IMG/VR virus record: IMGVR_UViG_2778261154_000012
DNA from: a virus
Lineage: Duplodnaviria; Heunggongvirae; Uroviricota; Caudoviricetes
Length of the DNA: 5,820 bases
Strand: one strand, 5' to 3'
The notes under the pieces are model-generated. The model searched no databases. It had not been told where the DNA came from and was given only the letters and a program-made list of their open reading frames with translations. Within the stretch, counting starts at the first letter, position 1. The number at the start of each line of letters is the position of its first letter. Below, one piece after another: positions 2,169 to 3,934 of the stretch. The position numbers and the translations under genes were made by a program.

Positions 2169-2197
2169 ATTGTATCGCTTTAGGTGGTGTATTTAAA
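2169..2197 (-). promoter_or_regulatory. Candidate sigma70-like promoter for the serine recombinase gene
   Basis: On the minus strand: TTTAAA (plus 2192-2197), a 17-nt spacer, then TACAAT (plus 2169-2174), about 50 nt upstream of the recombinase ATG. This is a hexamer match only. The -35 element lies in the AT-rich junction with the yecE-like fragment. Confidence 0.3.
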
Positions 2198-2594
2198 CGT
2201 GTCTGATGAAAATCACCCGATTAACGCCGCGCTGATGTAAACCGCGATTAAGCGTTTGTTCCTCTTCTCCTTTGGCGAAAAACTGTGGATGGCGGACTTC
2301 CACGCCATAATTAAATTCGCCAGGAAGAGAATCGAGAAAATGCCAAAGCGCAGGCAGCTCCCGTGGGCCGAATGTGGCAGGCAGTTGCAGCCAGTATTGC
2401 CCAATGCGCGGAGCCAACGGTGACATGCGGGTCAAAAATTCAGTCACTAAATCATCGCAATGCCGTAATGCTGCCTGATGCGAAATGGTCGCCGGAAACT
2501 TAAAACAGAAGCGGAAGTCATCTGTGGTCTGCTCACGCCAGCGCAGGACAACCTCGGGTTTCGGCAGGGCGTAAAGCGTGGTGTTGCCCTCCAC
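2193..2594 (-). pseudogene. yecE: Internal fragment of a DUF72-family (YecE-like) gene, truncated at both ends
   Basis: The translation (…CVEGNTTLYALPKPEVVLRWREQTTDDFRFCFKF…LQLPATFGP…) matches my recollection of the DUF72 N-terminal-half motifs (FN.VE.N.TFY..P, DDFRF). It is only 133 codons, whereas DUF72 proteins are roughly twice that. The frame opens at a GTG with no Shine-Dalgarno, and upstream in-frame sequence runs into the integrase 3' end and a stop at 2652-2654. The frame ends at TAA 2193-2195 exactly where composition switches to AT-rich DNA. G+C is clearly higher than the flanks. The yecE symbol is from memory; yecE is a known lambdoid and Stx-phage insertion locus in E. coli. Confidence 0.6.
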
Positions 2595-2620
2595 GCAGTT
2601 AACATGACGGGTATTAAAAG

Positions 2621-3934
2621 CTAACTCACTGATTTTAATAAGCCTCTTGTGTCACTTTGGTGACCATGGGACATCATTGGGACATAATCTGCCAGCTTCT
2701 GATTCAGCATTGCGATCTGTTCTGCATTGCTGTCAGTCATCCATGCTCCGTATACATTGAACACCATCTGGGCACTTGCATGCCCCATCTGGCTGGCAAT
2801 GAAGCTTGGATTTGCTCCGGCAGATAATGACCAGCACGCATAAGTGTGTCGTGACTGGTATGCCTTTCGATGCCTGATGCCTGCACGTTTAATGGCTGTT
2901 TCCCATGAGTCGCCAATGGAATCTACCTTGTAGATAAAACCTACCTGTTTGCTTTTTCTAACCACCTGGGGGTTAAATACGAAAGTACATTCATGATTTA
3001 CTGAACGTCCATATTCACGTAGTTGAACCTTGATGTTGTGCTGCTTACCCAGTCTTGTCATTTCAGCCTGATTTTTCAGGACACTGATAGCGGGCTGGAT
3101 AAGATGCACAACCCTGTTTGTACTTGCTTCAGTTTTAGGTAGAGTGAACTCACCGAGTTTCGTATAATTGCGCCTGATAGTAATTGTTCCTGCTTTCAGA
3201 TCGATATCTTCCCAGGCCAGGGAGACCAGTTCACCATGACGCATTCCTGTGTACACAGCCAATGACCACAGGTTTTTTGTCTGCTGATGCCGGCAAGCAT
3301 CTATCAGGCGAATAAATTCGTCACGAGTTAGCGGATCTGGTTCTGCCCTGGCTCTTTTAAGAGGCTTAATTCCCTCGAAGGGATTTGCTTCTATGTAACC
3401 GTGATCTGCAGCAAACTGAAACATTCCAGCGATTGTTGTCATGTAATAATTTACTGTGACAACGCTTCGTCCTTTTACTGGAGCTTTACCTTTTGTTGGA
3501 TTTTGGTATCCGGTCAGCAAATCTTTCCTGATATACAGCAATTCCTCTTTGGTCACTGCTGATACCAGTCGGTTGCCACCAATCTTCGGAACCATCATCC
3601 TTGCAATGGATTCATAGCGATTGAATGCATTTGCAGAGATTTCCATTCGTTTCAGATCCAGCCATTTTTCTTCAAGTTCTTTCACCGTAATTTCTTTTTT
3701 ATTTACCCCAAAAGCCTTGAGGTTAGGAGAGTCAGGGAACTGCGCAGCATAATCAAAATTTCCTGTACGAATGGCAAAACATACAGATGTCCGCAGCTCT
3801 CCGGCGATCTTCCTGTTCTTGGCAGTGTCAGGGACACCAAGATTTTCCCTGACACGTTTACCTTTAAAATTAAACCAGATGCGTAATGTGCCACCGTGGT
3901 TTTCGACGCCTGTTGGATATTTGACTTTATCCAT
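2621..3934 (-). CDS. int: Tyrosine site-specific integrase, lambdoid IntR/lambda-Int family, with N-terminal arm-binding region
   Basis: 437 aa. The C-terminal catalytic region carries the tyrosine recombinase signature as I recall it: HTGMRHGEL…LAWEDIDL (box I Arg), SRHTYACW…AGANPSFIASQMGH (His-x-x-Arg) and a Tyr near the end (NVYGAW). The N-terminus MDKVKYPTGVENHGGTLRIWFNFKGKRVRE resembles the Rac IntR N-terminus. A strong Shine-Dalgarno GGAGG lies 5 nt upstream of ATG 3934..3932. Confidence 0.9.
   Translation of the reverse strand: MDKVKYPTGVENHGGTLRIWFNFKGKRVRENLGVPDTAKNRKIAGELRTSVCFAIRTGNFDYAAQFPDSPNLKAFGVNKKEITVKELEEKWLDLKRMEISANAFNRYESIARMMVPKIGGNRLVSAVTKEELLYIRKDLLTGYQNPTKGKAPVKGRSVVTVNYYMTTIAGMFQFAADHGYIEANPFEGIKPLKRARAEPDPLTRDEFIRLIDACRHQQTKNLWSLAVYTGMRHGELVSLAWEDIDLKAGTITIRRNYTKLGEFTLPKTEASTNRVVHLIQPAISVLKNQAEMTRLGKQHNIKVQLREYGRSVNHECTFVFNPQVVRKSKQVGFIYKVDSIGDSWETAIKRAGIRHRKAYQSRHTYACWSLSAGANPSFIASQMGHASAQMVFNVYGAWMTDSNAEQIAMLNQKLADYVPMMSHGHQSDTRGLLKSVS

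Follow-up and report, generated by a model that had tools for sequence, protein, structure and literature searches.

Very probable independent integration of a P27-like prophage and a serine-recombinase island in yecE

In this study, we characterized a remnant of the yecE gene that lies between two recombinase genes of different superfamilies in a 5,820-nt stretch of viral DNA (IMG/VR record IMGVR_UViG_2778261154_000012; hereafter the window). In all probability, two unrelated elements integrated independently in yecE, each at its own att site. A P27-like lambdoid prophage would have recombined through its tyrosine integrase at the core CACGCAGTTAA, leaving int and xis beside attL, with the opposite end of the prophage, beyond the window, adjoining the first 96 nt of yecE. 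On the other side, a large serine recombinase would have integrated an island of ~12 kb at the dinucleotide AA at yecE nt 478-479, so that the last 340 nt of the gene would follow the island's other end. The 394 bp between the two sites would be host DNA, carried by neither element. An earlier note on this DNA, made from the sequence alone, had proposed that two independent elements targeted the same roughly 400-bp stretch of yecE, and this proposal was upheld: the two site-specific chemistries differ, each element is found alone, their co-occurrence is not enriched and the empty site is clean. The note had also spoken of a tandem insertion hotspot, a term that suits two elements in one gene, but the att sites are two distinct ones and not one shared site. 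The features of the window are listed in Table 1.

Table 1. Features of the 5,820-nt window, with the evidence for each assignment
Feature	Position	Strand	Evidence
IS2-type (IS3 family) insertion sequence end, truncating Dit-like gene	1..77	.	Multi-copy, found at 20,790 places across 4,684 genomes
Dit-like tail/baseplate gene, 3' part	78..598	+	Pfam Dit_like PF21821, E=9.3e-8, profile positions 66-118/127 only
Large serine recombinase, 507 aa, integrase of ~12-kb AT-rich island	595..2118	-	Pfam three-domain architecture
Island end with attP-derived half-site; arm GGTGTATTTA at 2186-2195, then 13-nt spacer to crossover	2119..2208	.	Junction comparison
Crossover dinucleotide AA (yecE nt 478-479, codon 160)	2209..2210	.	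Junctions of window, EC12 and TL-14 against K-12 attB
yecE (DUF72) internal fragment, pseudogene remnant	2209..2602	-	K-12 identity, Pfam DUF72
P27-type att core CACGCAGTTAA, attL copy, overlapping yecE nt 86-96	2592..2602	.	attL/attB/attR comparison
Phage arm, core to int stop codon, 18 bp	2603..2620	.	Alignment; same 18-bp spacing in P27 (int from nt 30)
Tyrosine integrase, 437 aa, P27-like prophage	2621..3934	-	Arm-DNA-bind_2 (PF12167) and Phage_integrase (PF00589)
Excisionase, 78 aa	3990..4226	-	Match to DUF1233 putative excisionase in Pfam, E=1.2e-32; positioned like L02 in P27
P27-like early-left genes: 48-aa ORF, DUF4222, DUF5406, SPFH/Band 7 gene without 5' end	4235..5730	-	Pfam, P27 alignment
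IS3-family insertion sequence end, truncating SPFH gene	5731..5820	.	Found at 24,720 places across 4,075 genomes, with the annotation 'IS3 family transposase'

The yecE fragment and its two borders

The alignment to intact yecE that the earlier note had suggested set both breakpoints to the base, at K-12 nt 86 and nt 479, and all 394 positions between them (window 2209-2602, minus strand) are identical to K-12/BW25113-type yecE. K-12 yecE (819 nt) is a clean empty site, consisting of the flanks joined, with one copy per core. Within the 272-aa protein, this leaves codons 30-159 (NCVEG...NRVI) complete, so that the description of the fragment as about the middle 130 codons of a DUF72 gene was exact; the 5' 96 nt and 3' 340 nt of the complete 272-codon gene lie beyond the two elements. 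The translated ORF at 2196-2594 matches DUF72 (Pfam PF01904) over profile positions 22-138 of 217 with E=1.3e-31 and 110.8 bits, the Pfam cut-off being 25.3 bits. The fragment had originally been given as 2193-2654, of which only the part from 2209 to 2602 is yecE. Positions 2193-2208 are island DNA, where the 133-aa ORF over the fragment ends with its final five codons and its stop, and 2603-2654 are phage DNA, namely the 18-bp spacer, of which the first 12 nt are still yecE-like (8/12 bases), followed by the last 11 int codons with the stop at 2621-2623. GC content is 36-45% left of 2209, ~52% in the yecE fragment and 42-49% in the phage part.

Core identity at the junctions, which the earlier note had proposed to look for, was found as an 11-bp core on the phage side, as is typical of a tyrosine integrase, and the 2-bp AA on the island side. 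The window holds one junction per element; for the partner junctions, those of other strains were used. On the phage side, the 11-bp core is common to attL of the window, attB of K-12 and attR of strain EC12, and matches exactly what the P27 record AJ298298 annotates as attL and attR (P27 attL = nt 1-11). The yecE att of O26 Stx2 phages has been published as CAYGCAGTTAA (PMC5592225), and integration of phage P27 in yecE is attributed to Recktenwald and Schmidt (2002) where that work is cited in PMC3491183 and PMC8065619. Window 2592-5591 aligns with P27 nt 1-3000 collinearly and without gaps at 95.9% identity, and the spacing of 18 bp from core to int stop is the same. The tyrosine integrase flank noted earlier is the P27-type int with both of its Pfam domains; its product is 96.6% identical in amino acids to phiP27 Int (CAC83519) and contains, by inspection, C-terminal SRHTYA...MGHAS...Y motifs. 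Unlike in P27, an IS interrupts the prophage at 5731; prophage homology ends at window 5730, and the window contains only the left 3.1 kb of the prophage.

On the island side, the left junction (EC12 and TL-14) agrees with attB through ...TCTAA and the right junction (window and TL-14) agrees with it from AAAATCACC on; the right junction of TL-14 is identical to that of the window. Left junction, right junction and attB have nothing but AA in common in the variants of EC12 and TL-14, and only these variants fix the crossover at 2 bp, since identity with attB stretches to 7 bp (AAAATCA) in the island variants of TUM1881 and E32511. The serine-recombinase gene lies 90 bp from the junction. At the island's other end, the partner inverted-repeat arm TAAATACACC is located 13 nt past AA, and the attP half-sites are symmetric, the GGTGTATTTA/TAAATACACC arms being perfect and 17 of 23 positions matching by manual count. 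The reconstructed 50-bp attP is GGTGTATTTAAACGTGTCTGATG-AA-GATTAGCAAGGTCTAAATACACC. Judged from the sequence, the 2-bp AA crossover is the signature of a large serine recombinase, and we infer that the integrations on both sides were catalyzed by the particular proteins encoded beside them.

The attP was also found in an uninterrupted form. A metagenome contig of 11.5 kb (L015) consists of the island in circularly permuted form, with attP intact and yecE absent, and would represent the island excised precisely with attP regenerated, an origin by tandem duplication being possible in principle. A search for the island attP in IMG/VR viral contigs gave no match. The junctions, their cores, the single occupancy of each site and the island in its excised form, with attP, are direct observations.

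The window is bordered by IS ends (1-77 and 5731-5820), indicating an IS-rich genome in which the fragment might go back not to site-specific integration but to a rearrangement or deletion, IS-mediated or homologous. However, both breakpoints fall, to the base, on att cores seen again in unrelated strains, and neither junction contains IS sequence, so that we regard such an origin as next to impossible. Because IS elements truncate each of them, both the prophage and the island are probably immobilized or decaying in this genome.

Occurrence of the two elements in other genomes

When junctions were counted among 5426 complete E. coli genomes, without phylogenetic correction, the serine junction was present in ~280 and the P27-type junction in ~327. 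Both occurred together in 11-13 genomes, compared with ~17 expected under independence, and co-occurrence of the two junctions is therefore not enriched. The serine island, which Citrobacter has as well, occurs in ~5% of the complete E. coli genomes, and ~95% of islands are without a P27-type neighbor. It stands alone in O157:H7 strain E32511 and in TL-14, where the rest of yecE is contiguous. Conversely, the P27-type junction stands alone in genomes such as SE11, where yecE runs on past the base corresponding to window 2209 with no island junction. The genomes with both elements comprise EC12, TUM1881 and 9-11 others, and Citrobacter freundii has the same tandem around its own diverged yecE, which is 77% identical to that of K-12.

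The order of int, yecE fragment and serine recombinase is thus seen again in no fewer than 11 E. coli genomes and in C. freundii, a recurrence in keeping with the alternative raised in the earlier note, in which a single composite element carries the fragment in its att region and moves as a unit. That alternative had to be abandoned as extremely unlikely. The fragment is 100% K-12 yecE in the window but only 77% identical, as the host's own allele, in Citrobacter; each element is found alone with yecE continuing on the other side; the excised island is without yecE; and the P27 genome record starts and ends at the 11-bp core, again without the yecE fragment.

The two elements could also be functionally linked, with the tandem selected rather than coincidental, if the island were a satellite of the P27-like phage or if read-through from int across the yecE fragment drove the recombinase gene. 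Several observations agree with such a functional link. The minus strand carries int, the yecE fragment and the serine-recombinase gene alike, the tandem is seen in two genera, the island looks satellite-like, and from int to the island junction there is no convincing terminator, a weak hairpin at 2163-2145 being within chance expectation. Yet the 11-13 co-occurrences do not exceed the number expected by chance, nearly all islands lack the supposed partner, and the island's tape measure resembles that of virulent Felix-O1-like myoviruses and not a lambdoid tail. The island also has a promoter-like site of its own upstream of the recombinase gene, though this too is within chance expectation, and a promoter and terminator scan of positions 2000-2750 yielded nothing above that level. 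Taken together, we find a functional link very unlikely and favor two independent integrations.

The serine recombinase and its island

The AT-rich serine-recombinase flank described in the earlier note was confirmed. The 507-aa recombinase matches Resolvase (PF00239, E=7.6e-21, profile positions 1-144 of 145), Recombinase (PF07508, E=9.5e-16) and Zn_ribbon_recom (PF13408, E=5.1e-7). Its N-terminus contains YIRFSSERQ, and inspection placed the nucleophile serine at S11 in the motif Y7-I-R-F-S11. The protein matches the A118 integrase structure 4KIS weakly, and the only coiled-coil-like signal consists of a sub-threshold Pfam Seryl_tRNA_N match at residues 328-420. Homologues with 81-93% identity occur in E. 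coli, E. albertii and Citrobacter, and the best phage homologues (YbcK-like) are 36% identical. Since an E. coli relative with a 68% identical recombinase, P0006, sits at another locus, beside a lipid A acyltransferase-family gene (PF03279) and not yecE, targeting of yecE is specific to the clade of recombinases with at least 81% identity. A scan of a genome collection for further relatives was uninformative, its only matches being a 25%-identical one in Ruminococcus and, in a Mycobacterium assembly, a 548-bp contig that we take to be contamination.

The island measures 11.5-13 kb with ~38% GC. In addition to the serine recombinase, it encodes a 330-aa HTH_36 protein beside 4 iterons and has tape-measure and Dit-like genes that are ~28% identical to those of virulent Felix-O1-like myoviruses. 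No capsid, portal or terminase gene is annotated in the island, many of its ORFs are without a family match, and a PADLOC scan of its proteins detected an orphan methyltransferase only. In the window, the 5' end of the Dit-like gene has been lost to an IS; a full-length homologue of 255-261 aa adjoins the serine recombinase in EC12, E32511, TL-14 and Citrobacter. Island homology in other genomes begins at window 78-80, one match lists an 'IS3-like element IS2 family transposase', and window 1-77 presumably matches the IS2 terminal repeat itself.

It is possible, though on balance doubtful, that the island represents an uncharacterized family of phage satellites or anti-phage islands in Enterobacteriaceae, for which yecE would hold a dedicated second att site. 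A parallel is the PLE of Vibrio cholerae (~18 kb), which has a large serine recombinase and parasitizes the virulent phage ICP1; the resemblance is one of general features only. Like PLE, the island is small and AT-rich, has a large serine recombinase, a putative initiator gene by iterons and a circular excised form, and is without recognizable capsid or terminase genes. Unlike PLE, it carries tape-measure and Dit-like tail genes. By analogy with PLE and ICP1, the island could parasitize or hinder tail assembly of Felix-O1-like phages. Two candidates were rejected. SpLE2 of O157 Sakai, considered as the island itself, is located at sbcB (PMC3519850), and virome record MT836130 (12.7 kb), considered as a packaged relative, has a GC content of 52% and matches only in the recombinase (30%, at one end). 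In the literature searched on yecE together with serine recombinases, integrative elements or satellites, no account of the island came up.

Comparison with known systems

The site of P27 and other Stx phages in yecE has been known since 2002. The core in the window is identical to that of the yecE-type Stx phages, which include the Stx2e phage P27 and Stx1 and Stx2 phages of O26:H11, O145:H28 and O157:H7. The island side resembles the systems of phiC31, Bxb1 and A118 (LI Int): the recombinase has Resolvase, Recombinase and zinc ribbon domains, the crossover is a 2-bp non-palindromic AA, the attP, of ~50 bp, has inverted half-sites, the target is internal to a coding gene and the integrase gene is beside attP. 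It differs from these systems in that sequence similarity is only remote and the cargo is a 12-kb island rather than a complete phage. The site provides an attB/attP pair of a natural E. coli large serine recombinase, and such pairs serve as useful parts in genome engineering. The island, an unstudied and possibly satellite-like mobile element, is the sole part of the arrangement that we consider worth following up.

In other respects, the arrangement is unremarkable, with two elements occupying a known prophage hotspot. The yecE gene is among the core genes disrupted by prophage integration (Bobay et al., 2013; PMC3603311), and neighboring or nested prophages are common in E. coli (Nakamura et al., 2021; PMC8112680). 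Compared with tandem or polylysogenic occupancy of hotspots in E. coli, the elements here use separate att sites, 383 bp apart in yecE, without nesting, and belong to two recombinase superfamilies. The window is thus a base-exact example of a known phenomenon, in which a conserved but dispensable core gene serves as landing pad for several integrative elements. Because the island splits yecE in ~5% of complete E. coli genomes, assays that use an occupied yecE as a proxy for Stx phages, whether by PCR or in silico, can mislead. The genomes in which the island splits yecE, at a position different from that of the Stx phages, include O157:H7 strains such as E32511.

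The yecE fragment and its two junctions

The sequence between the two recombinase genes (see table) is a piece of yecE. Its Pfam DUF72 score of 110.8 bits is far above chance and it is identical to the yecE of K-12-type genomes at 394 of 394 nt, which bears out the DUF72/yecE assignment of an earlier note on this DNA. The fragment corresponds to nt 86-479 of the 819-nt gene (reference yecE at L001, a locus with the intact gene, 2661-3479). Complete codons are 30-159 of 272; the note's "middle ~130 codons" was therefore exact. The coordinates it proposed (2193-2654) do contain the fragment but are too wide: at the left they take in 16 bp of the island and at the right 52 bp of the phage. 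Those 16 bp supply the final codons and stop of a 133-aa ORF. GC content is 36-45% in the recombinase module and climbs to ~52% in the fragment.

Features of the window
Feature	Position	Strand	Remarks
IS end	1-77
Dit-like tail gene, 3' part	78-598	+
Large serine recombinase, 507 aa	595-2118	-	Resolvase, Recombinase and zinc-ribbon domains
DUF72/yecE fragment	2209-2602	-
Tyrosine integrase, 437 aa	2621-3934	-
Excisionase	3990-4226	-
Early-left prophage genes	within 2621-5730	-	DUF4222, DUF5406, SPFH gene without its 5' end
Second IS end	5731-5820

Three junctions were compared on the tyrosine-integrase side: attL from the window, attB from the empty site of K-12, and attR from the distal end of the corresponding prophage in EC12. 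The sole sequence common to them is CACGCAGTTAA (window 2592-2602, yecE nt 86-96), the exact 11-mer annotated as attL (nt 1-11) and attR in the record of the Stx2e phage P27 (AJ298298). The 18-bp spacing from this core to the int stop codon is the same in P27 and the window, the two Int proteins are 96.6% identical, and a gap-free alignment pairs window 2592-5591 with P27 nt 1-3000 (95.9% identity). Passages in PMC3491183 and PMC8065619 credit P27 integration in yecE to Recktenwald and Schmidt (2002), and the att of yecE-type Stx2 phages of O26:H11 has been given as 5'-CAYGCAGTTAA-3' (PMC5592225). Given the att features of the P27 record and these reports, the tyrosine-integrase side was already known; it is a member of the published system, agreeing with it in every defining feature that can be tested. 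In the phage arm adjoining the core (2603-2614), 8 of 12 positions match yecE, and the arm would encode TRHV where YecE has ARHF. This match fits the longer, 21-bp att of related O145:H28 Stx phages (PMC8112680), and a longer yecE-like sequence seems to be the origin of attP in P27-type phages.

In EC12, TL-14, E32511 and TUM1881 the same serine recombinase occupies the right end of an island of 12-13 kb, whose left end borders the 3' 348 nt of yecE, followed by yecN. In EC12 and TL-14 the left junction agrees with attB as far as ...GGCTGTCTAA and the right junction, at which the window is identical to TL-14, agrees with it from AAAATCACCC... onward. The only bases common to both junctions in these variants are AA (2209-2210, yecE nt 478-479). 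A 2-bp overlap without longer duplication is a hallmark of serine recombinases. Identity with attB is longer (AAAATCA) in the variants of TUM1881 and E32511, which is compatible with an AA crossover, though a less sharply defined one. The attP rebuilt from the two island arms has outer inverted repeats that match perfectly, GGTGTATTTA ... TAAATACACC, at a distance of 13 nt from AA on either side, and its half-sites are symmetrical at 17 of 23 positions by our own count. In architecture and att sites the serine side would qualify as a large serine integrase system, one only remotely related to those characterised. Mapping of both breakpoints on K-12 yecE and a search for junction cores, which the earlier note had proposed, thus gave an 11-bp core on one side and 2 bp on the other.

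In NZ_AP045781.1, yecE homology to the window ends at 2560 (~yecE nt 128), with a phage bet gene beyond; this may be a third position at which yecE is broken or has received an insertion.

Independent occupancy of yecE

Two accounts of the arrangement had been offered: two independent elements in one gene, or a fragment carried by one element as part of its att region. Among 5426 complete E. coli genomes, the serine-recombinase junction occurs in ~280, the P27-type junction in ~327 and both in 11-13, vs. ~17 expected from the two counts under independence. The island is alone in O157:H7 E32511 and TL-14, with yecE nt 1-477 running unbroken into yecD, and the P27-type junction is alone in matches such as SE11, where yecE sequence carries on beyond window 2209 and the island junction is absent. 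In other O157 genomes yecE is intact. The order int, fragment, recombinase recurs in Citrobacter freundii, where the fragment shares only 77% identity with yecE of E. coli and is therefore Citrobacter's own gene; both att sites are thus conserved and used across genera. In assembly GCA_030518175 of this species, L012:6196-9524 holds a 437-aa Int, ~490 bp of yecE and a 507-aa serine recombinase.

Metagenome contigs were scanned for the rebuilt attP, which was found in one, ERZ1090866 NODE-760 (L015; 11,473 nt). It carries the serine recombinase, attP (TUM1881 variant; 2940-2976) and left-end sequences of the island joined across attP, with no yecE sequence or host DNA. On the TUM1881 island its two ends fall 1 nt from each other, and its last 43 nt (3' end) are Nextera adapter (CTGTCTCTTATACACATCT...). 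The end mapping, the joined attP and the lack of yecE therefore make it a circular permutation of the island. A tandem duplication is a less likely source of this contig, which appears to be the excised form.

Separate occupancy, the co-occurrence count and separate att sites support two independent elements. Solo occupancy, the Citrobacter allele and the yecE-free circle refute the fragment as cargo or att part of either. The arrangement arose by two site-specific integrations into one gene, at att sites that lie 383 bp apart, and the two recombinases are of unrelated superfamilies. The attL/attR pair of each element is untouched by the other, so that each could in principle excise alone. Read-through coupling is conceivable, since int, the recombinase gene and the yecE remnant between them all point the same way, but nothing supports it; a promoter and terminator scan gave a single promoter-like site, located upstream of the recombinase gene, and a single weak hairpin, and neither exceeds what chance would give.

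Multi-copy termini of the IS3 family lie at both window ends, IS2-type on the left and IS3-family on the right, which points to an E. coli or Shigella-like source genome rich in IS elements. The island's Dit-like gene is interrupted by IS at 77/78 and the prophage SPFH gene at 5730/5731, and through these interruptions both elements may have lost mobility or be decaying in this genome.

That hotspot genes can be doubly occupied is well documented, and the window is a clean, fully mapped example that would not surprise a specialist. PMC3603311 explicitly names yecE itself among disrupted core genes. The by-product of the mapping is the island, of which a literature search found no description.

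The serine-recombinase island

The island is a discrete element of 11.5-13 kb and ~38% GC with a conserved layout, present in ~5% of complete E. coli genomes and also in Citrobacter. Full copies lie at L003:10038-22107, L009:5937-18062 and L005:6688-20062 and in the Citrobacter locus L012; the window has the 78-2208 part. The layout comprises, in order, a 277-aa protein of no assigned function; a Dam-type methyltransferase, in some copies; a 330-aa HTH_36 protein (putative initiator) beside four iterons, GGTGWCATTTTGTC, spaced 22-23 nt (in L015 the four lie at 35-116, adjoining the HTH_36 gene); small ORFs, to which the variants of EC12 and E32511 add an HNH endonuclease; a 236-aa protein labelled 'transposase', with no Pfam match; a tape measure of ~685 aa with ~28% identity to its counterparts in virulent Felix-O1-like myoviruses; a Dit-like baseplate protein; and the serine recombinase. 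The island has no annotated capsid, portal, terminase or lysis genes, no recombinase >37% identical was found in sequenced phages, and PADLOC reported only an orphan methyltransferase among the island proteins. The island may be satellite-like, or else a remnant that is old yet still excises.

A 68%-identical relative of the recombinase occurs at a different locus in E. coli 2785200 (L013:8001-9530), adjoining a lipid A acyltransferase-family gene (PF03279) with a small resolvase gene alongside; target choice therefore varies within the recombinase family. The N-terminus of the E. coli serine recombinase also matches, at 97% identity, a 548-bp contig of 'Mycobacterium sp. NAZ190054' (NZ_LMVQ01000531.1), which almost certainly reflects contamination of that assembly.
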